Assembly (NCBI GenBank): GCA_964016885.1
Contig: OZ024741.1
Coordinates: forward strand, 13,206,001-13,270,000
Length of the DNA stretch: 64,000 nt
Direction of reading: 5' to 3'
Source: Eledone cirrhosa
Lineage: Eukaryota
Shown: positions 5,257-60,310 of the stretch, one piece after another
How the letters are laid out: each line of letters begins with the position of its first letter
Numbering within the stretch: the stretch's first letter is position 1
Notes under the pieces: model-generated
Told to the model about the DNA's origin: nothing
The model's input: only the letters and a program-made list of their open reading frames with translations
Database searches by the model: none
Program-made: the position numbers and the translations under genes

Positions 5257-8200
5257 CTACAGCCGCATGACCAGAGTAGGCCCACTCACACGAGCAATTC
5301 TCGCCACATTCACCCACCTTTCAGCAAATGTACTGGGGGGGAGGGCACTTCTCTCTCCACCCTGACCTTCCTTTCCAAGTGAAACTTGAAAAAGTTGATG
5401 AGGGATTGGCCGAAGAGAAAAGTGTCTGTCTTCAGTCCTTTCAACCTCGTCCACCATACAACCTCTTTCGCTACTGCCACCAGACAGAGGAAAATTGCCT
5501 GCCTTTCCAAAAGAAGGCGGCGGGTCGATCTTCACTATGGACTCGGCCGATAGCCGGATCCGTTCTACATGCGACAACAGCTGTTCAACATAACTCCACA
5601 AGTCAGTAATGCACGGACACTGGACGAGTGCGTGCAGTACGGTTTCGTCGCTCTGCGCGCATCTCAGGCAGTTCCGTCTGACAGCACTTCCGTGCCTGTA
5701 GAGTTTATCCCGAACCGGCAGTGCCTCTCGGTAGCACTGCCAAGCAAGGGAAGTCCTCCGGTACAGACTGGTTAGTTCGACTTCGTTGACTCCCAGAGCC
5801 TCTCCGAGTGGGTCGTTGCACTTGCCCACCACTAATCCTCTATAGAACTCGAGAGTGGAAGTTCCACTGACCGCATTGCCCGCCTGGTAGAGGGCAGTGA
5901 GTACCTGGCAACATTCCAGATGCCAGTCACCCAGTCTCGGTCTCTTCTTGACCCAGGACTGCAGCTCAGTCAAAGAAACGAGCTGCGGAAAGGCCCGTCT
6001 GACAAACGGCGACCACACCTGTTCACCATTTAGGCAGAATATCTGGAGATGCCGCAGCCTCAGCGCGTGCCTGCGCATCATTAGCCACGGCATGCCCAGC
6101 CCTCCACGTAGAGGGTGCTGGCAGCTGATGGACCGCCTCACCAGCGGAACCTGACCCTTCCACAAGAATTTGAAGAGGAGCCGCTCCAAGATGGCGAGGC
6201 GCGAACGGGGGCAAGGGACGACGGTCAGACGGTAGTAGATGACGGATGCGATGTACGCGTTCTCCACCTCCGCCCGACCTTTCAGTGATAGCTTCATCCC
6301 AGCTCATTCTGGGTGAGACTGGCTACCCTGCCCGTCACCTCGTCCCAATTCTTATCCCCCTGGAGGTCTGGCCCGAACCAAACCCCTAGAAACTTTACCG
6401 GTCCGTCCGTCCAGCGCCTAACGACGCTGTTGGACGGCATGGACTTGCCTCTCCAGGTGCTGAGTTGCAAGCCCACCGACTTTTCCGGGTTAAGTTTTGC
6501 TCCCGTCAACCTTTCATATTCCTCCAATAAGTTGCCGACCACCTCGATTTCTGAGGTGTCCGACACCATCACGGTGATGTCGTCCGCATAAGCCGACACA
6601 GCCTTTCCGCGTCCCGGTTCGAGCGGGATGCCCTGCAAGAACTCCAGCTTCCGCAGTAAAGGCTCGAGAGTCAATACGTACAGAAGGGAGGAGAGAGGGC
6701 ACCCTTGACGGACCGATCGGGAGACCTGAAACGGTTCCGAGAGGTGGCCATTAATTTTGACCATCGAGCAGGTGCCGCTGTGCATTGCAGCGATCCAGCT
6801 TCTGAAGACGGGGCCGAAGTCAGCCGCCTTGAGGACAGCCTCCATGTACCGATGGTCGACCCTATCGAATGCTTTCGATTGATCTAAATTGATCAGAGCC
6901 CCACCGAAGCCAGGTTTACACCCTACCCTCTCTATGATGTATCGCATTAGGTGGAGGTTGTCGTGTATGGACCTGGTTGCGATTGCGCAAGTTTGCGCCT
7001 CCCCAACCAAATCCCCGACGACAAGCGCCAACTTCTTCGCTAACACCCTGGCCAAAATCTTAAACTCTGTGTTGAGCAGAGTTATGGGCCTGAAATTGTC
7101 TAATGTGTCCCTCTTGTTCTCGTCTTTCCTTATCAGCGGCAATACGCCCCGGCTCACAGAACTGGGAATACTCCCGTTTTGCTGCCAGTTGCAGTAGAGG
7201 GCTTCGAGGAGATTGGATAACAAGTCTGGCATATTTACGTAAAGCTCGTAGGCCAGACCATCCAAACCGGGTGACTTGCGCCTTATGCAGCTGACAAGGG
7301 TATCCTGAATCTCGGCTCAAGTAATTGGCCTTTCGCAACGCCCAGCGTCAGCCGTCGAGAGTTGCGGCAAGCCATCGAGGTAGGGAGTGAAGTCCGCCAC
7401 CATCTCTGACCCGCCACTTCCCCCGAACAACCGAGCAAAATCTTGGCGAAAGGCCTCACACATCCTCTTGGAATCGCTCAGCTCGTGCCCGTCTCGGTCC
7501 GTCAAAGACCGAATCGTGGTTTTATTACCACGCTGCGCCTCTGCCACGCGAGCCCATCGAACAGCTTTGGTTCCCTCGTTTCTCAGAGCATGCGCCTTAG
7601 CTCTGACAATGCAGCCTTCGTGTTTCGCATTGAAGAAATGGTCTAATGCCATTCTCGCCGCTAGCACGTCAGTTGCAATGCCACTACCAATAGCCTCGTC
7701 TAACTTATCTACCAACTCCCCCTCCTTTCTATTTTTCTCTAACGCTACTTATTTGCTAAACTCTATCGACATTACTCTAATCTCTCTTTTGAGAGCCCTC
7801 CCACCACCATCTATTGTTGACGACTCCCCCTGTCAACTTTTTCTTATCTAAATTGTTGACCTGGTCCCTGTAAGCCTTACGTGCCGGAAATGACATGTTT
7901 AGCTTCCAGTAACCAGGTCCTAACCTACGCGTCTTATCTAGGTCGACCATACAGATCACAAACTTGTGATCTGAATAGGCGACCGTTTCAAAACGTGGAC
8001 AGCTTACACTATTTTTGTCTATTTTCCTAATGAATATCCTGTCTATATACGATCTAGATGACCCTATGCTGTTAGCCCAGGTTCACACTGGCGCATTAGC
8101 GAAATCTAGTCGGTACCTGTCAGACAGTTGGAAATGGCTGATCAGGTTCTTGAGGCTTTTGCACCCCCCGCTCCTATCGGATACTCCCACACAGTCCCAG

Positions 8201-16958: not shown

Positions 16959-17011
16959 CTGCCTGATGAGGTCACAGCCAATAATGGCTGTCATTGAAAT
17001 ATGTATAGCAG
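16959..17011 (+). ncRNA. Type I hammerhead ribozyme
   Basis: CUGC-CUGAUGA-GGUCACAGCCA-AUAA-UGGCUGUCAUU-GAAAUA-UG-UAUA-GCAG. Stem I is CUGC/GCAG and the cleavage triplet is AUA. Confidence 0.65.
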
Positions 17012-18689: not shown

Positions 18690-19265
<576 letters not shown>

Positions 19266-19347
19266 GTGCAAATTTATACGGGAACAAAACAGAGAGGCAG
19301 ACAAATAAAGGTTTATTAGGTTCTCGCTTTTGAGAGTGGGGGGGGGG

Positions 19348-19378
19348 GACGTTTCGGGCATAAGCCCTTCTTCAGGAG
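19348..19378 (-). ncRNA. Minimal hammerhead core lacking a clear stem I partner
   Basis: Minus strand reads CUGAAGA-A-GGGC-UUAU-GCCC-GAAAC-GUC, followed by a poly-C run instead of the 3' strand of stem I. Confidence 0.5.
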
Positions 19379-19405: not shown

Positions 19406-19467
<62 letters not shown>

Positions 19468-19473
<6 letters not shown>

Positions 19474-21653
19474 AAGTGGATGGATACTTCAACAGGTACA
19501 ATGTACTTGTAGAAATATTCAAGTTGTTTATAATACATGTGGTTCAATGGCACTAATTCGAGATACCAGAACAATATAAAAGTAGCGAAACAAACGGTTA
19601 TTAAACAATTTTCTAAATAAATTAAAAAATGATTAAATAATCACCTGTTCAGATGCTGTTACCGACGGTTTCATCATTCCAAAAGATTGGAAATCCAACG
19701 AATTTCCAATGGAAAGAAATGAATCTTCAGACAGCCCTATTTCCACGCTATAAGGTATAGCAAGTAAATATTATGCTCCCTGCCCAACGCATGCGGTCAA
19801 GCCGTTAAAGTGACACACACGCAAATCAGGTCGCTGATAAAAGCTGGATATTATAAACATGTCGAATTGCCACTAAAATTAGCGGCATTATTCAACGTTT
19901 TGTTCTCTACGTAAGGAGAATAAATTATAGAAGTGGATGGATACTTCAACAGGTACAATGTACTTGTAGAAATATTCAAGTTGTTTATAATACATGTGGT
20001 TCAATGGCACTAATTCGAGATACCAGAACAATATAAAAGTAGCGAAACAAACGGTTATTAAACAATTTTCTAAATAAATTAAAAAATGATTAAATAATCA
20101 CTTGTTCAGATGCTGTTACCGACGGTTTCATCATTCCAAAAGATTGGAAATCCAACGAATTTCCAATGGAAAGAAATGAATCTTCAGACAGCCCTATTTC
20201 CACGCTATAAGGTATAGCAAGTAAATATTATGCTCCCTGCCCAACGCATGCGGTCAAGCCGTTAAAGTGACACACACGCAAATCAGGTCGCTGATAAAAG
20301 CTGGATATTATAAACATGTCGAATTGCCACTAAAATTAGCGGCATTATTCAACGTTTTGTTCTCTACGTAAGGAGAATAAATTATAGAAGTGGATGGATA
20401 CTTCAACAGGTACAATGTACTTGTAGAAATATTCAAGTTGTTTATAATACATGTGGTTCAATGGCACTAATTCGAGATACCAGAACAATATAAAAGTAGC
20501 GAAACAAACGGTTATTAAACAATTTTCTAAATAAATTAAAAAATGATTAAATAATCACCTGTTCAGATGCTGTTACCGACGGTTTCATCATTCCAAAAGA
20601 TTGGAAATCCAACGAATTTCCAATGGAAAGAAATGAATCTTCAGACAGCCCTATTTCCACGCTATAAGGTATAGCAAGTAAATATTATGCTCCCTGCCCA
20701 ACGCATGCGGTCAAGCCGTTAAAGTGACACACACGCAAATCAGGTCGCTGATAAAAGCTGGATATTATAAACATGTCGAATTGCCACTAAATAAACAACT
20801 TGAATATTTCTACAAGTACATTGTACCTGTTGAAGTATCCATCCACTTCTATAATTTATTCTCCTTACGTAGAGAACAAAACGTTGAATAATGCCGCTAA
20901 TTTTAGTGGCAATTCGACATGTTTATAATATCCAGCTTTTATCAGCGACCTGATTTGCGTGTGTGTCACTTTAACGGCTTGACCGCATGCGTTGGGCAGG
21001 GAGCATAATATTTACTTGCTATACCTTATAGCGTGGAAATAGGGCTGTCTGAAGATTCATTTCTTTCCATTGGAAATTCGTTGGATTTCCAATCTTTTGG
21101 AATGATGAAACCGTCGGTAACAGCATCTGAACAGGTGATTATTTAATCATTTTTTAATTTATTTAGAAAATTGTTTAATAACCGTTTGTTTCGCTACTTT
21201 TATATTGTTCTGGTATCTCGAATTAGTGCCATTGAACCACATGTATTATAAACAACTTGAATATTTCTACAAGTACATTGTACCTGTTGAAGTATCCATC
21301 CACTTCTATAATTTATTCTCCTTACGTAGAGAACAAAACGTTGAATAATGCCGCTAATTTTAGTGGCAATTCGACATGTTTATAATATCCAGCTTTTATC
21401 AGCGACCTGATTTGCGTGTGTGTCACTTTAACGGCTTGACCGCATGCGTTGGGCAGGGAGCATAATATTTACTTGCTATACCTTATAGCGTGGAAATAGG
21501 GCTGTCTGAAGATTCATTTCTTTCCATTGGAAATTCGTTGGATTTCCAATCTTTTGGAATGATGAAACCGTCGGTAACAGCATCTGAACAGGTGATTATT
21601 TAATCATTTTTTAATTTATTTAGAAAATTGTTTAATAACCGTTTGTTTCGCTA

Positions 21654-21660
<7 letters not shown>
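19468..21660. repeat. 457-bp unit array: about 2.9 tandem copies followed by about 1.9 inverted copies, with one hammerhead per unit (retrozyme-like)
   Basis: TAGAAGTGGATGG starts at 19471, 19928 and 20385 (period 457). The inversion point is at about 20791. Both flanks are (TA)n and there is no ORF. Confidence 0.93.
21044..21124 (+). ncRNA. Type I hammerhead in the 457-bp unit (also 21501..21581 on +; 19655..19735, 20112..20192 and 20569..20649 on -)
   Basis: GCUGU-CUGAAGA-U-UCAUUUC..[two short hairpins]..GGAAUGA-U-GAAACC-GUC-GGUA-ACAGC. Confidence 0.75.
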
Positions 21661-21694
<34 letters not shown>

Positions 21695-22887
21695 ATACTT
21701 GGGGAGGGTCATATTTGTGTAATAATATTGCCAGAATTAATAACAGAACACACTCACTATTTGGTTGGTTTTCGCTTCTGTGTTTTTTATATCGGTTAAT
21801 CTAATTTATTCGGTCCTCAATGTTACCATTGACTGACCAACGGTCAAAAATACATATATATTATAGACACAAACACATATATATAGTCTAACAAAGTTCT
21901 TTCGTGGCACATCTGCAACATCGTCAGTGGTGCTATTATGCTTCCTCCCGTCGTATTGTATGCCTACGCCATCTTTATTTAGTCTGTTTATTTATTTATT
22001 TATTTGTTTATTTGTTTTTTGTCTTCTCTGCGCATGCGTTTGCGTGTGTGTATAGTGTTTTGTTTGATGTGTGTTCGTGTTTGGGTGACTGTGTATTGGT
22101 TATTGTATTCTATCTTAGTTTACTAGTGTGTGTTTATATGTGTTTGTTGTTATTGTGCTTGTGTATGTATTTATTTATTTATTTATACTTCTCTTAGGTC
22201 AGTGTTGTTTGTTTGGGTGTTGTTGCTATTTCATTCATTTTTTCTGTTTAGCCTTGGCCTTCTAAGTTCTATTTTGCTGCCCTCTCTGATTTGCCTATCT
22301 GCTATTTCTATGTTTAGATATTATTCTAATTTCTATGTTGTCTATGTTACCGTCGTGTTGTTGTCTGGCATGTTCGTATAGTACTGAACCGTTATTTCGT
22401 CCTTTTAGTTCCCCCAGTGTTGGTCTATCCTTTCACCTATGCTACGAGCTGTCTCGCCTATGTATGTTGTTGTCATGTTTCTGCAAGTACCCTCTGTACA
22501 TCTTATGCTATAGACTACGTTTCTAGTTTTACAGTTTATCCGGGGGTTTACTTTACATATAATACATTTCCTATTAGTACAGTGGGTTTTCTTAAAATGG
22601 TAGGTTTTGCTGATCAGGGATTTTATGGTGAACAAGAACAACAAATCCTGCAGCTACCACCAAGATTTGCTCTCTACAAAAAGATTAACCCTATTGAGTG
22701 CAAAACGGAGCTGGAAAAGTGTTTCACAAAAATACGTTGGAATGCAAAAGTAAACAACAACAACAACTATACGGACAACAACAACAATAATAACGATAGT
22801 AGTAATATAAACAATAACTCTGAGTATAGAAATAACAGCTATAATAGTAATAGTCATAACATTAACAATAGCAGGAGAGTGAGAAAT

Positions 22888-22982
22888 AGTAATAATTGTT
22901 TCTACTTTAGGCACAAGGCCAGCAATTACCCAGTTCATTGCTGGTACTTTATTTTATCGACCCCGTAAGGATGAAAGTCAAA
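22888..22982 (-). mobile_element. SINE 3' fragment inserted in the Penelope-like ORF
   Basis: Reverse complement of TTTCATCCTTACGGGGTCGATAAAATAAAGTACCAG...GGCCTTGTGCCTAAAGTAGAAACAATTATT, shared with the full SINE copies. Confidence 0.85.
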
Positions 22983-23257
22983 ATGGTAATATTAACGATA
23001 GACAGAACAACAACAACAACCACAATAATAATAATAATAATAGAAACATTAACTACAGACACAGCACCAGCGACCACAGTAGTAATAATGGTAACAATAC
23101 GAGTAACAACAACAACAACCACAGTGGTAATAATAGAAATAATACATGTAGCAACATTAATGATAGACACAACAACAACAGAAAAAAGAAACATAATAAA
23201 AGTAACAACCACAATGGTAGAAATAACAGTAACAACAACAATAACGGTGGAGAAAAC

Positions 23258-23505
23258 AACAACAATACATCCAACAATCACAGCAACAATACATCTAACA
23301 ATCACAGCAACAATACATCTAACAATCACAGCAACAATACATCTAGCAATCATAACAACAATACATCTAACAATCACAGCAACAATACATCTAGCAATCA
23401 TAACAACAATACATCTAACAATCACAGCAACAATACATCTAGCAATCATAACAACAATACATCTAACAATCACAGCAACAATACATCTAGCAATCATAAC
23501 AATAA
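23258..23505 (+). repeat. 24-bp minisatellite (AACAATACATCTAACAATCACAGC and variant) in frame within the Penelope-like ORF
   Basis: About 10 tandem units encoding NNTSNNHS or NNTSSNHN. Confidence 0.85.
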
Positions 23506-26250
23506 TAATAATGCTAATGATAGAAACAACAACAACCACCCTGATAACAATAATAGCAACACACACAACTATGACGATAGATATAATGACAACCCCTTAG
23601 AGAAACCATTTTTCAACCCAGCTGACAAAACATATAAGATGGGTAATATCTATCCTACGAGGTTACCCTTTAATAAAAGGGTTTGCATACCACAACAAAT
23701 AGATGACGAGACAGAGGCACAGTTCACCATAGCTAGAAATAAGATTAGACAAATAGTAGACCGGTTTACTAAGAGACAGAGCAGACCAGAGGTCCAACAA
23801 CTTGGGAGGAAACCTGTAGAAGGCTTGGTTAGCCTCAAGCAGCGCACAAGGGATGGTGAGGTAGTATGTCTACCCACGGATAAGTCTGGTAGGATGTCAA
23901 TAGACAGCATGCCGAACTACATCAAGGCTATGCAACCCCACATCACCAACACGAGCGAAATTCATAGCAAATACATGATGGGAGAGAGAAAATCCTCAAC
24001 GCTCACATGATGATGTGGACCGACATCCTAAAGCCAAGCAGACGCACTGCCAACAACTTTCAGGCGTCTAACAATGGCATACCACCCTTGTATGGGCTCC
24101 ACAAAGACCACAAGACAGTCGACGACCCGACAACAGGACCACCAACAAGACCTGTATGCGGAGCAAATATAGCTAGCAACTACAGGATCTCCTACTTCCT
24201 CTCAATGGTTATATGCCCCATAATCAAGATGTCCCCAGATGTATGTGACAGTACAGAGGACCTCCTCAGCAGAATCAGTGAGTGCAACAAAAATAGGAAC
24301 CTATCCAACTGCATAATAGGCAGTATGGATGTGGTATCACTGTACCCATCCATTAACATTGATTTTCTGTGGAAAAATGTGTGGAGATGATCATTGAGAG
24401 TGAGGTGGAGTTCTGCGACGTCGACACAAACGACCTGGGCCTCCTACTTAGACTTACCTATGACACTGACTACCTAGACAGCCATGACCTTAGACGTTTC
24501 TGCCCCAGTAGACCCATAAGAGGTACCCCCCCCCCCCCCAACCATAACCTCAATGGCAAAAAAGACTCCCATGGGAAGGTGGATTGGGTGGACCAAAGCT
24601 ATACGGAGCCCCCAAAACAATGATCAGGTAAGAAAAATGGTCGCACATGTAATAGGGGCTAGTAGCAAAACTACCCTAAAGGGCCACATATTCAAATTCA
24701 ACGAGAAGATCTACACCCAAAATGAGGGAGCAGCCATTGGCGTCAGCATAGCTGGTGACGTTGCCAAACTTTTTATGGTATGGTGGGAAAGGAGACTCAA
24801 AGATCTCCTTGATGAGAGCTCCATAGACCTCATCATGTACTCTCGTTACGTAGACGATATCAATATAGTAATAAGGACATCCCCACAAGAGAGTACTAAC
24901 AAATTTGATTTAGAATGTAGCACAATGGAAAGCATCCAGCAGATAGCTAATTCCATACACCAGAGTATAACTGTAACTATCGACTACCCTTCCAAACACC
25001 CTAACAATAGACTACCTGTATTAGACACGGAACTCTGGATTAACACTATAGACGAGAGAGCCCAAATTCTCCACTCACACTATGCTAAACCCATAGCCTC
25101 CAAATACCTGATACTCAAAAACTCAGCAATGTCCAATAGTGCTAAGTTTAATGTTCTGATCGCAGATTTGGTACGAGTGATGAAGAATGTGTCCCGCATG
25201 TGCGACCCAACAGAAATGGAAAGACACTTCCAACACTTCATCAACCGTATCCAGTTCTCTGGCTACAACCAAAGAGACAGAATCAGAGTATACGAAGGAG
25301 CCACGGAGAAGTATAAGATCCTCCTAGAACTGGACATGAAAGGAATTTTCCCATTATACAGGAGCAAATCATGGAATAGCTTAGATAGGACTAGACATAA
25401 GATAGGGAAAGCCACCTCATGGTACGACAACCAGAGATACCAGAGTGTCATGTTTGTGGACGCTACCCCTGGAGGGAAATTAGCTAACCAGTGTCGAAAG
25501 GCCCTGAGAAAGACCCATTTAAAGATTAAGGTGGTAGAAAAGCCAGGAACCACCATAAAATCCCTGATCAGCAAAACCTACCCTTTTAAGAAAATCCACT
25601 GTACTAATAGGAAATGTATTATATGTAAAGCAAAAACCCCCGGATAAACTGTAAAACTAGAAACGTAGTCTATAGCATAAGATGTACAGAGGGTACTTGC
25701 AGAAACATCACAACAACATACATAGGCGAGACAGCTCGTAGCATAGGTGAAAGGATAGACCAACACTGGAGGAACTAAAAGGACGAAATAACGGTTCAGT
25801 ACTATCGAACATGCCAGTCAACACGACGGTAACATAGACAACATAGAAGTTAGAATAATATCTAAACATAGAAACGACCCAGCAAATAGGCAAATCAGAC
25901 AGGCCAGCGAAATAGAACTTAGAAGACCAAGGCTAAACAGAAAAAATGAATGGAATAACAACACCCAAACAAACAACACTGACCTAAGAGAAGTATAAAT
26001 AAATAAATAAATACATACACAAGCACAATAACAACAAACATATAAACACACACTAGTAAACTAAGATAGAATACAATAACCAATACACAGTCACCCAAAC
26101 ACGAACACACATCAAACAAAACACTATACACACACGCAAACGCATGCGCAGAGAAGACGAAAAACAAATAAACAAATAAATAAATAAATAAATAAACAGA
26201 CTAAATAAAGATGGCGTAGGCATACAATACGACGGGAGGAAGCATAATAG

Positions 26251-26296
26251 CACCACTGACGATGTTGCAGATGTGCCACGAAAGAACTTTGTTAGA
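26251..26296 (+). ncRNA. Degenerate hammerhead-like motif in the pseudo-LTR (mirror copy at about 21887..21931 on -)
   Basis: CUGACGA-U-GUUGCA-GAUG-UGCCAC-GAAAG-AA-CUU. Stem II has one mismatch and stem I pairs poorly. Confidence 0.4.
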
Positions 26297-26550
26297 CTAT
26301 ATTTGTGTTTGTGTCTATAATATATATGTATTTTTGACCGTTGGTCAGTCAATGGTAACATTGAGGACCGAATAAATTAGATTAACCGATATAAAAAACA
26401 CAGAAGCGAAAACCAACCAAACAGTGAGTGTGTTCTGTTATTAATTCTGGCAATATTATTACACAAATATGACCCTCCCCAAGTATAACAATATTTGTTT
26501 CGACACACGATTTCATATCAAAAACCTCGCAAAACTAATTCATCGCCGTT

Positions 26551-26622
<72 letters not shown>

Positions 26623-31169: not shown

Positions 31170-32152
31170 TACAGTAGTATGTATATATATATATACATAC
31201 ATGCACACATATATATATATATATGTACGTATGGATTCACCGAACATTTATAATGTTCGGTGTGTTTGTAAACAAATATCCCGTATTAAACCGTAGTGTC
31301 CAGCAACCACCGTTGCTCGTTTGTTCAACACTGACAAAGGAACGCCGTACTAGTTTCAAGCTTATTAGCTATCGTCAGCAACGTATACCTTCCTGCCAGA
31401 TGATTGAATGTCCGAAAGTATATACTTTCCTTATGCATATTAACGGCTGAGTAGCCCAATTTGCATATCGAGTGGGTTAATCGGCCGGGTGCACCGAAAA
31501 CGATAAAGGGAAAAAATGAAACGAAATTTCATTTCCTACTCTTAGTACGGCTGTTACTTAAATATAAGTATGTACACGTACATACATATATGTATACCGA
31601 CGTACAGTACTATGTATATATATATACATACATGCACACATATATATATGTACGTATGGATTCACCGAACATTTATTATAATGCTCGGTGTGTTTGTAAA
31701 CAAACATCCCGTATTAAGCCGTAGTGTCTAGCAGTAGTGTCAGCCGTACTAAGAGTGGGAAATGAAATTTCGTTTCATTTTTTCCGTCTATCGTTTTCGG
31801 TGCACCCGGCCAATTAACTCACTCGATATGCAAATTGGGCTACTCAGCCGTTAATATGCATAAGGAAAGTATATACTTTCGGACATTCAATCAACTGGCA
31901 GGAAGGTATACGTTGCTGACGATAGCTAATAAGCTTGAAACTAGTACAGCGTTCCTTTGTCAGTGTTGAACAAACGAGCAACGGTGGTTGCTAGACACTA
32001 CGGCTTAATACGGGATGTTTGTTTACAAACACACCGAGCATTATAATAAATGTTCGGTGAGACCATACGTACATATATATATGTGTGCATGTATGTATAT
32101 ATTATACATACTACTGTACGTCTGTATACATATATGTATGTACGTGTACATA

Positions 32153-36104: not shown

Positions 36105-36171
36105 CATTTACCAAAGGTTTCACGAAGACAGACGAGCTCAACACAGACGTCTGAAATCGCTCATCAGAATG
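36105..36171 (-). ncRNA. Type I hammerhead ribozyme with an intact core
   Basis: CAUU-CUGAUGA-GCGA-uuu-CAGACG..CGUCUG-ucu-UCGU-GAAACC-UUU-GGUA-AAUG. Confidence 0.78.
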
Positions 36172-39483: not shown

Positions 39484-40146
39484 TTAATATTTTTTCTTTC
39501 GAGTCTTTTTCCCCTTTTTTTCAGGTGGCAGTTTCATTGCCGAGTCTCTATCCGAATCTGTGACAAAACTGAAGTCGAATTCTTTGAGATTCGGAAGACG
39601 GTTTGTAACTATCAGTCTATAATTACGTATCTTTTCGATTGGGTTTCCGTGTAAAGTGAGCTTCGTCAGATTCGTTAATGGAACCAAATTGTCAACATCG
39701 GACAGGTTAGCTATCTTATTACCATGCAAATATAATATTTGAAGGTTAGGGAACTTTTGTAATTGTAATGAGATGTTAGGTAGACAATTAAAGGAGAGAT
39801 CCAGCCAAGCTAGCTCTATAGGATCTTGGAAATATTCAGCCACCACGGCAGGCAAGATTTCGATGTCGTTGATGATATTGTTGTTTAATCGAAGACTTCG
39901 GCTCAATGACTTTTTCACATGGATTTTATTTGGTTGCTCTTCCAGAGGGGATCCACTGGTCTGCTCTAAAGATTTGTTGAATATGTTTTCATCCGAACTG
40001 AATATACTTGATTCCTCTTCCTTGGACTCGTGGAAAACGAGAGTCTCGATCAAATCCATTTGTTTGAAAGAAAAATCAATCGGTGCGCGTGCATTGGCCA
40101 GTTTGAATATGGTCTTCATATCTTCGTCCGGCAGCTTTTGGTTCAT
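39484..40146 (-). CDS. LRRC51: Leucine-rich repeat-containing protein 51-like (SDS22-like LRRs plus LRR cap), 220 aa, single coding exon
   Basis: Intact ORF with [46 protein letters not shown] and YRLIV...[15 protein letters not shown]. The ATG at 40146 is preceded by a polypyrimidine/AG acceptor. Confidence 0.82.
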
Positions 40147-40184
40147 AATATTTCTCTGCCGGACAAAACTGAGAAGCTTTGCTG

Positions 40185-40217
40185 CTAAAAGACAGACAAA
40201 AATCAAAATAAACAAAA
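40185..40217 (-). promoter_or_regulatory. Putative 3' splice acceptor upstream of the LRRC51-like ATG
   Basis: Minus strand reads TTTTGTTTATTTTGATTTTTGTCTGTCTTTTAG|CAG. Confidence 0.55.
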
Positions 40218-40299
40218 GGCTTCTTACGGAAGCATTTAAATTTGTTTAATTTCTTGTAGTTATTGATGATGACAACGACAACAACAACAACAACAACAA

Positions 40300-54175: not shown

Positions 54176-57100
54176 TGTTCTTCTGGTTTTATAATTTCAC
54201 AAAGTTTTACTAATAGAGAGAGAGTCGGTTTCTAACATAGACACAAGACTCTCTCATTGAAATTTACACATCAACTAGGTAGATATGTATGTATGCATGC
54301 ATGTGTAGATATGGATATTATTGTATGTGTGGATGTGTATGTTTTGAGTTGTATGTGTGCATGTGTATATGCTTTGTATCTGTACATGTGTATATGCAGA
54401 TATTAGATGCTAAATTTTTGGAATGTTTTACATATTTTTACTGTTCCATTAATGGATTGTACTTGTAATTTCCTAACTAGTTGTGTTCTTTCTGTTCCTG
54501 TGAAGCCCAGATTCTCAAGATTTGCATTGAGGCAGTTACTAACATACCCCAATGTCCCAATAATACCAGGCATAAATCTGAAGGTGTAATCAGGGTGGAG
54601 TATCTGCAGATTTCTCATCAGTTCTGCATAAATATTCTCCTTTTCACTAATCTTTGATATTATATTGGCATCTGCTGGGCAGCTAATTTCCACTACTGTG
54701 CATGCTTTCTTCTCCCTGTCCCATATCATAATATCTGGTCTGTTATGCCTGCATTTTATTGGGGTTTTTACTCGAACATTCCACCACTACTCTTTCATAT
54801 TATGTACATGGATGTCTTCCACATTGTTGTAGCTTTTAATGTGTTTATTATCGGGGCTATCTTTTTTACGAACTGCATTGTACAGTATTTTGGCCACTAC
54901 ATCATGCCTCATAGGTAGATAGTACCGCGATGACATCTTTGGACAGCTGCTGATGACATGGGTGATATCCTCGATGTTAGTTCTGCAGAGTCTGCACTTG
55001 TTATCACATCTAGGTGTTTTGCCTGCATGCCTATCTATTTTGTGAATCAGGTATTTCGTGCTAATCTCCTGTTCTTGGATTGCAAAAGCGTATCCTTCAA
55101 AGTGGGAGCCAATATAGAGGTTGTTGGTCCAATATAGACTACTTTCCTTATCTATATTACTCTCACTCTGGAGTTTCCTGGCAACATATCCATGCATGAT
55201 TTTTTGCTGATAGGCATGCAGTTTTTCATCCATGGATTCACTGCGATACTGCTGAGCGACATCCCTGGGTGTGAGTTTTTGATTATCACACAGGGAATAT
55301 CTCTCAAGGAGTTCCTTCCCAGCTCTCATGATCTTATGTGTTTCATGCAGATAGACTTGCTCGAGAAGCGGGCTCCTACGCTTCGAGGTTCGTGGATGTT
55401 GTCGGAGAGATATGATGCGACAGCCAAATGTTGTCTGGACTGATGTTACGCCTCTGCCTCCCTGCTTACGTTTCAAGTAAAGGCGGTCTATGTCACTGTT
55501 GATGTGGAAGTTTCCGGTGTTGTTCAGTATTTTTCGAGTTCCAACATCAAACTTAAAATCAGACTGAAGAAGCAGAAGAACAGAGCACTAACTACAAGGC
55601 GTTTTGACACTACCAAGCTGAAGAACGGTGACACAGAAGCACAGTTCGAGGCTGCTTTTAGGAATAGATTTGCTGTCCTTGAGAAGTCTGCACCAGGCTC
55701 GGTCAATTGGTGGGAGGAAATGAAGAAGACCATGGAAGCTGCAGAGGAAGAAATCCTGGGCTACAGGAAGTCCCTCAGAGAAGCTTGGGTCAGCGACAAC
55801 ACCTGGCAGCTGATTAATGAAAGGAAAGCCCTACACCAGCAGAGGCATGCCACTATCCCAGAGGCCATCAAGGTATATCAGCAGTATGTTGACAAGGACA
55901 AGGAGGTGAAACGCAGCGCCTAAAAGGACAAACGAATGTGGCTTGAGGGTAAGGCAGAGGAGGCGGAAGCAGCTGTGGTACGCAATGACATGCGCTCTGT
56001 GTACCAAATTGCCAAGAAAATCACCGGCAGCTCTAGAGCTAACTCAGGCCCGGTGAAAGCGAAAGATGGTACGCTGCTTTCCAAGGGTGAAGAAAAGTTA
56101 GTCAGATGGGCTGAACATTTCAAGGAAGTCCTCAACCGACCGGAGCCACGTGTGCCAGCAGATACTAAGGAACCTACTAGTTTGTTGCCTATCAATACTG
56201 ATGACTTCACCGAGAAGGAAGTCCGCATGGCCATCAAAACCCTTAAGAATAACAAGTCACCAGGTATGGATGGCATTTCTGCTGAAATGCTGAAGTCAGG
56301 AGGCGAAAGCATGGTCAAGTGGATGGGCCACTTATGTAATCTTGTGTGGAACATGGGTGAAGTCCCAGAAGATTGGAGAAACGGAGCGCTTGTCTGTATC
56401 CCCAAGAAGGGCAACCTTGCCGATTGTGACAACTGGAGGGGAGTGACCACTTCTCTCCATACCAAGGAAGGTCTATTGTCTGATGATCCTGAACGGCATA
56501 CGTGGCATGGTAGACCGGGAACTGCGAGAACAACAGGCAGGGTTCCGACCAAAACGTTCCTGTGCAGAGCAGATCTTTACGTTACGCCGCATCATTGAGA
56601 GGTACAACGAATTCCAGAGGACCCTCGCCGTCAGCTTCATCGATTTCTCCAAAGCATTCGATAGCATTCATCGGCCGTCACTCTGGAGCATCATGCATGA
56701 GTATGGTCAGCCCCAGAAAGTCATTTCGGCAATCAAACAGATTTACGCAAACTCCAAGTGCTGCATACGGACAGAGGATGGTTACAGTGACTGGTTTGAG
56801 GTGGTTACTGGTGTGCGTCAAGGTTGCTCGCTCTCTCCAATTCTCTTTGCCATAGCCATTGACTGGGTACTAAGAAGAGCGTCTAAAGACCAGGGTATAT
56901 CTTGGGTGGGAGAGCAAAAGTTGTCTGACCTGGACTTTGCGGACGATATTGTTGCACTTGCAGAGAGCACGGCTGACCTGCAAATTATTATGAACAATAT
57001 CAATGTCGAAGCAGGAAGCTTAGGTCTCAATATCAGTGCTCGGATTTCGTCCATCGTCCAATTGAGTATTCCAAACACATTGTGAGCCACTGTTTTGTTT

Positions 57101-58143
57101 TGCGCAGAGAGTTCCGATGACCATATCTTTCTTAATCGGGTGTAGTATTCCCTGGTTACGCGTTCTTTATTACAGATACCATTATAGGATATGTTCTCAT
57201 CTATCCCCAGGTATCTGTAGCAGTCTTCATCAGATATCGGTGAAACAGTTAGACCATTGATGACAATGTTGCTAGATTGGGTTGTTGTTTTTCCCCGCTT
57301 TACAGTCATGTATGAGCATTTATCTTGGCCAAACTCCATTCCTATATCCTTTGAGAACGTTGTAACCAGGTCAAGATTTTTCTTCATCCCATCCATGTTC
57401 TTGGAATAGAGTTTCAGATCGTCCACAAAGAAGTTATGGGTTAGGTTTGTATTTCTGTCCTCCTGTGAGCCAATGATGTATCCCTCACATTTCTTGAGCA
57501 GAAAGGACAAGGGGTTTAATGACAAGATGAACAATATCACAGAGAGACTGTCCCCCTGAAATATACCCCTGCAATATTTTATTTTATCAGTGAAAATAGA
57601 GTCCTCCCTCTCTGTCTTTAACCTTAGGATAGTAGCCCAAAAAGAAGACATCCTCTCTATGGCTCTGACAATAATGTCTGGGACTTTAGCAAGTTGGAGG
57701 GCCTCTATCATCCAAGAGTGGGGAACAGAATCGAAAGCTTTCTTGTAATTCAGCCAGACTGTAGTCATATTCCTCCTAAGTTGTCGCACCTCCGATATCG
57801 CAGTTTTGTTGATTAGGAGTTGTTCAGCACATCCCCAAACCCTTTCCTTTCCAGCTGCTTGTTCATCTGTGATGATGTTATTATTTTCACAGTGATCTTG
57901 GAGGAATAGGTTTAGGCTGGCTGTATACATCTTATACATCAGGTTCTGGCATGCAATGGGTCGGTAGTTTATTGCCAAGTGGGTGTCTTTGTTCTTGGGG
58001 ACCAGTAAGGTTTGTGCTAATGTCAACCATTCTGGTATAAGTGTATCTCCCTTAAGAACTTGTTGGTAGAGGTCAGTAAGATACCTCCGATAGAATATTA
58101 GTTTTTTGTACCAGTAGCCGACAATCATGTCTCTTCCAGGTGG
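54176..58143 (-). mobile_element. 5'-truncated R4/Dong-type element, interrupted by an RTE fragment and flanked by (TATG)n
   Basis: RT motifs NYRPIACQN, GIFQGDSLS and FFVDDLKLY. Zinc finger CRLC..EDITHVISSC..RHD. RLE motif HNRPDI.IWD..C.VVEISCP.D..K...Y. Confidence 0.9.
55541..57035 (+). mobile_element. Internal RTE-clade LINE fragment (linker plus RT up to FADD)
   Basis: RWAEHFKEVLN, KSPGMDGI, NWRGVT, QQAGFR, DFSKAFDSI, GVRQGCSLSP and DFADDI. It lacks both natural ends. Confidence 0.9.
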
Positions 58144-58169
58144 TATGTATGTATGTATGGTTTGTGTCA

Positions 58170-60310
58170 GGTCGCTCTCGAGTGCTACTGGTAACATGTA
58201 TCCCAGTACAACCTGTCTCATTGTCGGTTGTCGGCGACTAAACTGGCGACCCCACCAAGCTTGCTCGGTGAGGAGGGTGATATTTGGACACCCTGCAGGA
58301 TGAAATACAAGACCTGGCAAAGGGCGGAGGAACTCAGCAGAGTCAACGGCCATCCAAATAGTAGTTTATTTTTGCCTGGGAGTGAAAGACCGCCAGTTGT
58401 TGTCACACCCCTTTCTAGGAGAAGGAAACTCTGAAAAACAACCTGCGGCTTCAGAAGCATCCGATGATGTTGACCAGTTCTCCTTTTCGGGTAGTGTTTT
58501 CGATGCTCAGAGAGTGGGATTGGTCGAGTGCAAGGCCTTTCCCCACTTAAAAAACCTTCAAAGCACAGGCATTGCTTGTTCAGGATATGTTATAGGTTCG
58601 TGTGGCTGGCCGTAGCCTAAAAGTGCACCAAACTCTATAATCTGATAAGCGATTGCAGTACTCTTGGAAGCTGTTGGCAAGGTTCTCGCAAGCCTTTTGC
58701 TCAACAGATTTGAGGAGGATATCTGTCCTACAGCTATTCCAGAATCAAAGAGTTGTTTTAGAAGAGGGAGGGGAACAGTTGACATGATTTTCTCTGAAAG
58801 ATAAATACAAGAAAACTGCATTGAGCAGTGTGTGTCCCTATATCAAGTCTTTGTCGACCTAACAAAGGCCTTTGACACAGTTAACGGAGATACACTCTCG
58901 ATAATACTTGGAAAAGTAGGATGTTTACCCACGTTTGTGAGTATGCTAAAACAGTTGCACAGACATATGAAAGCTCGGGTTACCTTTAATGATCAACTAT
59001 CTGGGGAAATCTCAATTGAAAACGGGGTAAAGCAAGGTGATAATCCTGCTCCTACGCTTTTCTTCATCTTCTTTGCTGCCTTGCACACACATGCTTTCCA
59101 TGATTATGACAGAGGCATTCTTTTACGGTTCAGAACCCCTGGAAAAGTGTTCAACTTAAGAAGGTTTAAAGCTAAGATAAAAACCTTTCAAGCTCAGTTC
59201 AGAGAGCTTCTTTACGCTGATGACGCTGATTTTCTAGCACACACACAAGCTGACATGCAACACATTATGGACCGTTTCACATCCTCGTGTACAGGATTTG
59301 GGCTTACAATCAGCCTTATAAAGACCAAAGTAATGTTTACCGCTGCTCCTGGAGAACCATATACTGAACCCATATCATGGTTGATGGAACCAGGCTGGGA
59401 GTAGTAGATAAATTTGTCTACTTGGGTAGCACACTCTCAAATGATGACTCCTTGGGTGCTGAAATACATCTGCGCATCCAGAAGGTCTCTGTTGCCTTCG
59501 GAAAATTGAAAAAGATAGTTTGGGGATATCACAACATTACCAACAATCCCAAGGTGTTTGTGTATAGATCATGTGTTCTGTCTTCTCTTTTATACTCCAC
59601 CGAACCCTGGGCGCTATTCCGTAAACACAGCAAATTGCTTGAGCTTTTTCAGCAGAAATGTTTATGGCACATATTCAACATCAAGTGGCAAGACAGAACT
59701 CCTGGCATCCATGTCCTTATCAAAGCAGAATGTCCAAGCACAGAGTTTCAAGTAACATCTTCTCAAATGCGCTGGATAGAACATATCGTCCGCATGAAAG
59801 AAAGCAGGATCCCGAAGTAATTGTTTTACGATGAGCTCTATCTTGGAAAAAGACCTCAACACAAACCAAAAATGAGATTCAGGGACAGCATCAACAACAA
59901 TCTCAAAGAGCTGGCATTTTATATAGACAACTGGGAGGAGATAGCTCTAAATAGGGCTGAGTGGAGAAAGCTCATAAAGGGCAGTAGCAAAACTTTTGAG
60001 GATTGTCCTCTAGAACAAACAACTGAAGTGTCAGCTTCGGAAGGGCTGTACTCGCAGTCTTGATGAAGTCATCAGTAGTTAGACATGCAGTTTCTATCAC
60101 CGTGTACTCATCTCAAAGGTTGGTTATGTTTAATCACCTGAAGTCACATGAAAGGATACCCACCTGCAACACCACTCAACAAAGACCTGGCAAAACAACG
60201 TGTGTGACATGCAACAAAGTGTGTAGAACTAGTTCCGGACTAAAAAAAACACATGGTGGTACATAAAGATTGTGTCCCACAGGGTGATACCACTGGTCCT
60301 GTGAAAAACA
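58170..60310 (+). mobile_element. RTE/BovB-like LINE with a 5' UTR, APE deleted, degenerate RT and C-terminal zinc fingers
   Basis: FVDLTKAFDTV, GVKQG..APTLF, LLYADDA, FVYLGSTLS, RW..HIVRMKESRIPK and CVTCNKVCRTSSGLKK. Confidence 0.85.

Follow-up and report, generated by a model that had tools for sequence, protein, structure and literature searches.

How a non-coding unit with a predicted ribozyme comes to lie in a simple repeat both in tandem and in inverted orientation is the question raised by the array at 19463-21662 of the window, i.e. the whole 64-kb stretch of DNA analysed here (G000:C2:13206001-13270000 of the 3.0-Gb assembly searched for related copies). The array has a period of 457 bp and is composed of 2.9 copies (19463-20791) followed by 1.9 inverted copies (20791-21662); 161 of the 457 bases of the unit are G or C, and no ORF of at least 40 aa starting with ATG lies inside the array, the one listed ORF extending out into the left (TA)n. 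The segments 19574-20445 and 20791-21662 are mutual reverse complements over 872 nt with one mismatch (99.885% identity), and the C/T at 20102 is the sole internal difference between units of this array. Phase 239 is joined to phase 128 at 20791, so that the junction is not a symmetric fold-back (phase numbering starts at window position 21121, the predicted cut falling between phases 456 and 457). Since the hammerhead motifs are found on the (-) strand in the left arm and on the (+) strand in the right arm, the two arms face away from each other in RNA sense, their 5' ends being joined; any target-site duplication of the insertion would be hidden in (TA)n. The period, the copy numbers, the C/T position, the inversion and the (TA)n on both flanks, all reported in the initial annotation of this DNA, were confirmed, and the inverted geometry of Penelope type which it had recognised was also found, in the form of two outward, opposed arms in (TA)n. 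The parts of the array are as follows.

19408-19472, no strand: (TA)n target on the left, a few TA bases of which overlap the end of the left arm
19467-20791, RNA sense (-): left arm, 2.90 units, running from phase 239 at its 5' end to site B (phase 192), where its 3' end meets (TA)n
19655-19735, (-): hammerhead motif of the left arm (motif scan)
20112-20192, (-): hammerhead motif of the left arm (motif scan)
20569-20649, (-): hammerhead motif of the left arm (motif scan)
20791, no strand: head-to-head junction of both arms, with 1-nt microhomology
20791-21662, RNA sense (+): right arm, 1.91 units, running from phase 128 at its 5' end to site A (phase 85), where its 3' end meets (TA)n
21044-21124, (+): type I hammerhead motif (motif scan and folding; conserved in older copies)
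21501-21581, (+): second hammerhead motif of the right arm (motif scan)
21658-21690, no strand: (TA)n target on the right, doubling as the end tract of the adjoining insertion of a Penelope-like element (PLE)

Every unit holds one type I hammerhead motif, with CUGAAGA starting at 21049 and 21506 on the (+) strand and at 19730, 20187 and 20644 on the (-) strand; the claim of one hammerhead per unit is thus upheld at the level of the motif, the scan recovering five copies in the array. The motif comprises a 5-bp stem I, CUGAAGA, a long stem II with a U.U pair at its base, GAAA and a 3-bp stem III, and the cut predicted from it falls after GUA, between 21119 and 21120; no such motif occurred in 3000 dinucleotide shuffles of one unit. 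Rfam called no hammerhead in the window at the gathering threshold, nor in the array region at E<=10, nor in a short-stem relative, all its matches being low-complexity chance ones; the ribozyme call therefore rests on motif and conservation. This relative is an older copy (L105:2951-3028) in which stem II is 17 nt shorter and the core is intact. Across 24 older copies, picked by overall similarity, identity amounts to about 99% in the motif core (2 of its 13 columns being offset by one base) versus 91% overall. Folded as a circle, the unit gives z=-5.5 against 60 shuffles, the circular monomer reaching -118.7 kcal/mol in sense versus -97.2 kcal/mol in antisense orientation; the active fold of the motif, at -27.9 kcal/mol, lies 4.8 kcal/mol above an alternative minimum-energy fold at -32.7 kcal/mol. 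Conservation and folding together would point to RNA-level constraint on the unit, and are counted in favour of the explanation preferred below. Among the sequencing runs listed as containing the unit, none was an RNA run. A 487-nt contig (457+30) carrying A152G was found in run X5, which is of uncertain kind and bears the label of another organism; a circle or tandem DNA would explain this contig equally well.

Start sites of the arms across the genome

The unit belongs to a dispersed, mobile family: with one unit as query at least 206 matches were obtained, from 38 scored of 1563 candidates, and the 3' half of the ribozyme has 535 exact matches in the genome. Ninety-seven loci, the window included, were mapped, and dropping five of an older subfamily left 92; these are a non-random set, picked by searches and by end patterns, in which long arrays and A-ended loci are over-represented, and all locus counts come from a single assembly. 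The older relatives show 79-96% identity, some having units of 467-469 bp, and end mostly in the same places as the young copies. The arrays are very young (about 0.15% single-unit differences), and their arms reach 19 units, the largest array (L068-L069, 12.9 kb at G000:C1:156.42-156.44 Mb) being composed of 19.1 + 9.2 units.

Of the 151 arms of the 92 young loci, 148 have their RNA-sense 3' end at either of two fixed, TA-like sites abutting (TA)n; the other three comprise one contig end and two stray ends. Site A, used by 83 arms and placed at phase 85 in nearly all of them, lies 86 nt past the cleavage site; site B, used by 65 arms and placed at phase 190-192 in most, lies about 192 nt past it, the spacing between the two being 105-107 nt, and both sites end in TA-like bases which overlap the (TA)n target. 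Searched genome-wide, the exact junction patterns were matched by 88 A and 89 B ends, and the reversed controls by none. The two sites are moreover paired: among head-to-head pairs identified by coordinates genome-wide, 36 of 38 combine one A with one B (P=2.7e-9 versus independent choice), and the lone B+B pair, at L079, is truly A+B with an internal look-alike; in the fetched set, which overlaps these 38, 53 of 57 pairs are A+B, one is A+A and three have a stray end. The overlap at the junctions is mostly 0-3 nt (42 of 57). The 5' ends, on the other hand, are scattered over all phases: two of 150 fall at the cleavage site, about two being expected by chance (one N-bounded end omitted), and those of long arms depart mildly from uniform (KS P=0.016). 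A seeming accumulation of 5' ends at phase 436 proved to be an artefact of the variant at 435. The lengths of A and B arms are weakly correlated (rho 0.26, P=0.06), neither being longer. At four loci (L153, L172, L146 and L163) the second arm is very short, about 10-20 nt, so that loci with seemingly one arm may be twin insertions of which the other arm is nearly empty.

Variable start phases, which the initial annotation had proposed as support for a circular template, were thus not found: the 3' ends lie at the two fixed sites, variation being confined to the stop points. A circle is nevertheless compatible with fixed starts, since both sites are internal to the unit and lie well past the cleavage site. 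The best reading of these ends, overlooked by the initial annotation, is that both arms run outward, each primed from (TA)n, one per site. In L1 twin priming two target ends are likewise primed on one RNA and an inverted insertion results, as in the array, but each L1 arm copies its own stretch of a linear RNA, next to that of the other arm and without overlap; the arms of the array, unlike these, both cover the same sequence repeatedly from fixed starts. Contiguous twin priming of the L1 type was ruled out, as the arm ends are not adjacent in the template.

Variants and the template of each insertion

With three family-level sites excluded, 24 locus-fixed variants remain, shared by all covering units of their locus; most of them are private to one locus, and 15 of the 24, from 12 loci, span both orientations. 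Among the first 57 loci no variant fixed in one arm was missing from the other, and the common C/T variant at 435 agrees between the arms in 27 of 27 loci; in the array of 19.1 + 9.2 units no pass lacks either of two private variants (29 of 29 and 28 of 28). Variants confined to single units number 131, which speaks for each unit being a pass of its own, versus 5 which are partly shared, including two cases in adjacent units and T193G, present in 6 of the 28 units of L068-L069; these five allow for some local DNA turnover. T193G lies next to site B and is scattered over both arms; it could be an ambiguous base of one template read repeatedly, or the outcome of gene conversion. The cleavage site is crossed 249 times without an indel nearby; this, together with the chance-level number of 5' ends at that site, argues against the stitching of linear monomers. 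Single-unit transitions, in RNA sense, lean towards T>C and G>A (37 versus 17, P=0.014, first 57 loci), the pattern to be expected if a reverse transcriptase made miscopies of the G.U type. The model put forward in the initial annotation, in which a circle is reverse-transcribed by rolling, best accommodates the locus-wide private variants, the long arms and the clean crossings of the cleavage site. Locus-wide shared variants do not by themselves prove that a single molecule was copied, since two RNAs from one source locus would have the same outcome; the arms of the autonomous Neptune-type PLE described below likewise share variants (L120-122, L128, L130).

The composition of the two classes of variants differs. 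Among distinct locus-fixed variants, in RNA sense, 11 are A>G and 2 are T>C, versus 7 and 20 among single-unit variants (Fisher test, P=7e-4); one of the 11, A57G, is a G in 15 of 24 older copies, a set picked on the 3' half of the ribozyme, and without it P=0.0014. Besides A57G, the A>G sites fixed in arrays are at phases 11, 21, 49, 50, 152, 171, 248, 374, 378 and 412. Few sites are involved, and no new A>G or T>C site came from the third batch of loci. This bias hints at A-to-I editing of the template RNA, subsequently written into DNA; inheritance via unseen source loci, or a polymerase bias, is a possible origin as well. Editing is named in PMC7229834 as one possible source of the heterogeneity of mussel retrozyme RNA. 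The hint concerns the template RNA, and not the read-through hairpin which the initial annotation had envisaged as an editing substrate.

Proposed mechanism and rival explanations

The explanation which we consider probable is that the array is a young non-LTR retrozyme, for which the reverse transcriptase/endonuclease of a PLE primed the two ends of a cleaved (TA)n on a single 457-nt RNA circle, using two sites of it, and rolled round it. The element falls among the non-LTR retrozymes on every sequence feature tested, and behaves like PLE cargo. In such a process the tandem array would be transcribed, the hammerheads would cut the transcript to monomers and a host ligase would close these into circles, as knowledge of the family suggests (PMC7229834); a PLE protein, probably a dimer, would then cut both strands of (TA)n, an activity seen in vitro in another PLE (PMC11167929). 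One DNA end would anneal to the TA-like site A and the other to site B, in keeping with the ends, overlap and pairing observed; each would be extended, presumably by rolling, for a variable number of turns (the observed lengths range from <0.1 to 19), and the two cDNA ends would be joined head-to-head with little or no microhomology, as found at the junctions. Counting against this explanation, the active fold of the predicted ribozyme is not that of lowest energy, the motif has no Rfam match, and no partner PLE was found, either by DNA similarity to the one Neptune-type family compared or as a PLE ORF contiguous with an arm; the anole PLE, moreover, primes at RNA sites without homology to its target (PMC11167929), in contrast to the TA-like sites of the array. 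A more specific version, in which a PLE dimer sits on one circle, both enzymes displace strand as they roll and every unit of the two arms records the A-to-I edits of that circle, is offered as a tentative possibility, and may well be wrong; if true, the inverted arm and the one-sided tail of PLEs would be what double priming of one RNA generally produces, and the heritable evolution of the array element would be driven by RNA editing.

The hammerhead would be dispensable for insertion if the template were an uncut linear multimer, transcribed from a source array and twin-primed at A and B. This is unlikely: every private haplotype would need its own large and homogeneous source array (of at least 19 units for L068-L069), most locus-fixed variants are confined to one locus, the 131 single-unit differences were not seen repeated in register at other loci, and the source arrays would themselves require a monomer bottleneck. 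In its favour are the position of the active hammerhead fold above the one of lowest energy, the observation that an anole PLE used mainly uncut RNA and that its ribozyme mutants still inserted (PMC11167929), and the failure of 8 of 9 Xenopus dimers to cleave (bioRxiv 10.64898/2026.07.22.740005). The privacy of the haplotypes also bears on the proposal that two separate circles from one source locus were copied, the A+B pairing then stemming from an asymmetric enzyme complex rather than from a shared RNA; this proposal, with which the equally ambiguous variant sharing in the arms of the autonomous Neptune-type PLE is compatible, is quite improbable, as it requires one dominant source per event plus many privately marked sources and, should the A>G variants be edits, their sharing would imply one molecule.

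It may also be supposed that a PLE inserts short twin arms of 1-2 units, and that unequal exchange later lengthens the arrays or gene conversion makes their units alike. Expansion by unequal crossover is favoured in bioRxiv 10.64898/2026.07.22.740005, and would account for the two variants in adjacent units and for the scattered T193G, in 6 of 28 units of both arms; against it stand the ratio of 5 partly shared to 131 single-unit variants, the youth of the arrays, and the strand bias of the single-unit transitions, which suits errors of a reverse transcriptase better than DNA mutation, so that growth of this kind is regarded as very improbable. Finally, that the array is an artefact of assembly or of fold-back in long reads is scarcely credible, given that the junction joins different phases, that the flanks differ, that 57 loci share the same stereotyped ends with different junctions, and that older copies of 86-90% identity have the same ends; no contig of four public runs (X1-X4) bridged 20791, an outcome which is uninformative, contigs only being compared.

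The Neptune-type neighbour and relation to known systems

The right (TA)n of the array is shared with a separate insertion, which provides a comparison with an autonomous element.

21687-26552, no strand: Neptune-type PLE, separate head-to-head insertion sharing the right (TA)n with the array
21687-22630, (-): short end of this PLE, head-to-head arm
22628-26552, (+): long end of this PLE, head-to-head arm
24520-25647: RT fragment of this PLE, inside the long-end arm

The family of this PLE is young and very abundant, with open frames of >1000 aa whose translation contains RT and C-terminal GIY-YIG motifs and a CX4CX2C linker, which fit the Neptune clade as described in PMC8557442; the call is based on these motifs and on Atlas look-alikes of the ORF (at 0.97: RVT_1, HTH_animal and GIY-YIG), Pfam giving no match on the full ORF and the PDB weak RT matches only. 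In a survey of 30 loci plus the window, one arm of the head-to-head copies ends at +215 and the other at +258 to +276 (14 loci, the window included), with the exception of L111, which has two equal ends; the remainder are single-armed or incomplete. This pairing of a short and a long end matches the paired ends of the array, and likewise the tail at one end (PMC8557442) and the two start sites (PMC11167929) known from published PLEs. Comparison of the unit with the 30 Neptune-type loci by blastn gave AT-rich chance matches only, and no pLTR sequence is common to the unit and the PLE in this one family compared; since it has no DNA similarity to the retrozyme, the Neptune-type PLE is a comparator and not an identified partner. 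Pieces of PLE were found by tblastn near some retrozyme loci, none being continuous with an arm, and an ORF with RT plus GIY-YIG is absent from the array unit; that the array is itself an autonomous PLE was ruled out, as it has no ORF and no arm contiguous with a PLE ORF. At L118-L119 three tandem PLE units of 4.1 kb, 99.8-99.9% alike, have three variants in common, so that one may ask whether the full-length RNA of PLEs is copied in circular form too.

Animal non-LTR retrozymes were defined in PMC7229834, where circles are shown in mussel, coral and axolotl and where it is proposed that tandem cDNA arises from a primed circle, with PLEs as candidate helpers; bioRxiv 10.64898/2026.07.22.740005 ties retrozymes to the pLTRs of PLEs and prefers local expansion for the tandems. 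In the literature covered, circle-templated spread of animal retrozymes by PLEs is so far a proposal. The array resembles the metazoan retrozymes of both sources in having tandem units which are non-coding, low in GC and provided with a single type I hammerhead, and in co-occurring with autonomous PLEs, and it resembles the axolotl HHR_Amex2 in the U.U at the base of helix II; its 457 nt are just over the 150-450 bp given in PMC7229834 and within the 51-972 bp of the preprint. Twin head-to-head arms, two fixed starts, (TA)n targeting and locus-wide private variants were not found described in the passages covered of these sources; the motif of the array, moreover, has a long stem II.

As for PLEs, a tandem/inverted structure with a tail at one end and a (TA)n bias is described in PMC8557442, which terms the mechanism undefined and this mode of insertion unresolved; according to PMC11167929 a PLE protein, predicted to be a dimer, cuts and extends both strands, starting at two internal RNA sites which bound the tail and have no homology to the target. 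The array shares with Neptune and Naiad (PMC8557442) and with the anole Poseidon PAc (PMC11167929) the tandem plus inverted 5'-truncated arm, the one-end extension, the (TA)n bias, the two internal start sites and the extension of both strands. Unlike these elements it is without an ORF and makes many full turns per arm, its start sites are 105-107 nt apart versus 30-40 (PMC8557442, PMC11167929) and TA-like versus non-homologous to the target in the anole PLE, and the strict rule of one site per arm, as counted here, differs from PAc in vitro, where the two strands showed no difference in start site (PMC11167929). In the literature covered, which includes few subscription papers, paired start sites, locus-wide haplotypes and editing in retrozyme insertions were not found described; the retrozyme class, the PLE tail and the rolling model are already known; what is new is the rule of paired sites, the haplotypes at the level of the template and the bias towards A>G.

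The family offers countable genomic evidence, in the form of fixed paired starts, locus-wide haplotypes and clean multi-turn arms, both on the way in which PLEs make tandem/inverted insertions with a one-sided tail and on the circle-templated spread of retrozymes. It may serve as a natural gauge of the processivity of PLE reverse transcriptase (up to 8.7 kb in one arm), limits the error rate of this enzyme to at most about 1.5 per 1000 bases, and suggests how RNA editing might pass into heritable changes of DNA; the 457-nt unit is also a substrate with sharp predictions in vitro.

The array locus is a nest of PLE-type insertions; in the adjoining DNA, minimal hammerhead motifs of PLE type can be read from the sequence at 18785-18812 (+) and 19340-19375 (-), in short fragments bounded by (TA)n. 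Further hammerhead-like motifs were located by motif scan at 31378 (-) and 31916 (+), at 36167 (-) and at 16963 (+) of the window; among them are an opposed pair, perhaps a further head-to-head insertion, and a long-stem-II motif of type I, which may mark a second retrozyme family. Elsewhere in the window are a coding stretch with leucine-rich repeats at 39484-40245 (-) and two RT remnants of LINE type at 5257-7316 (-) and 56818-58365 (-).
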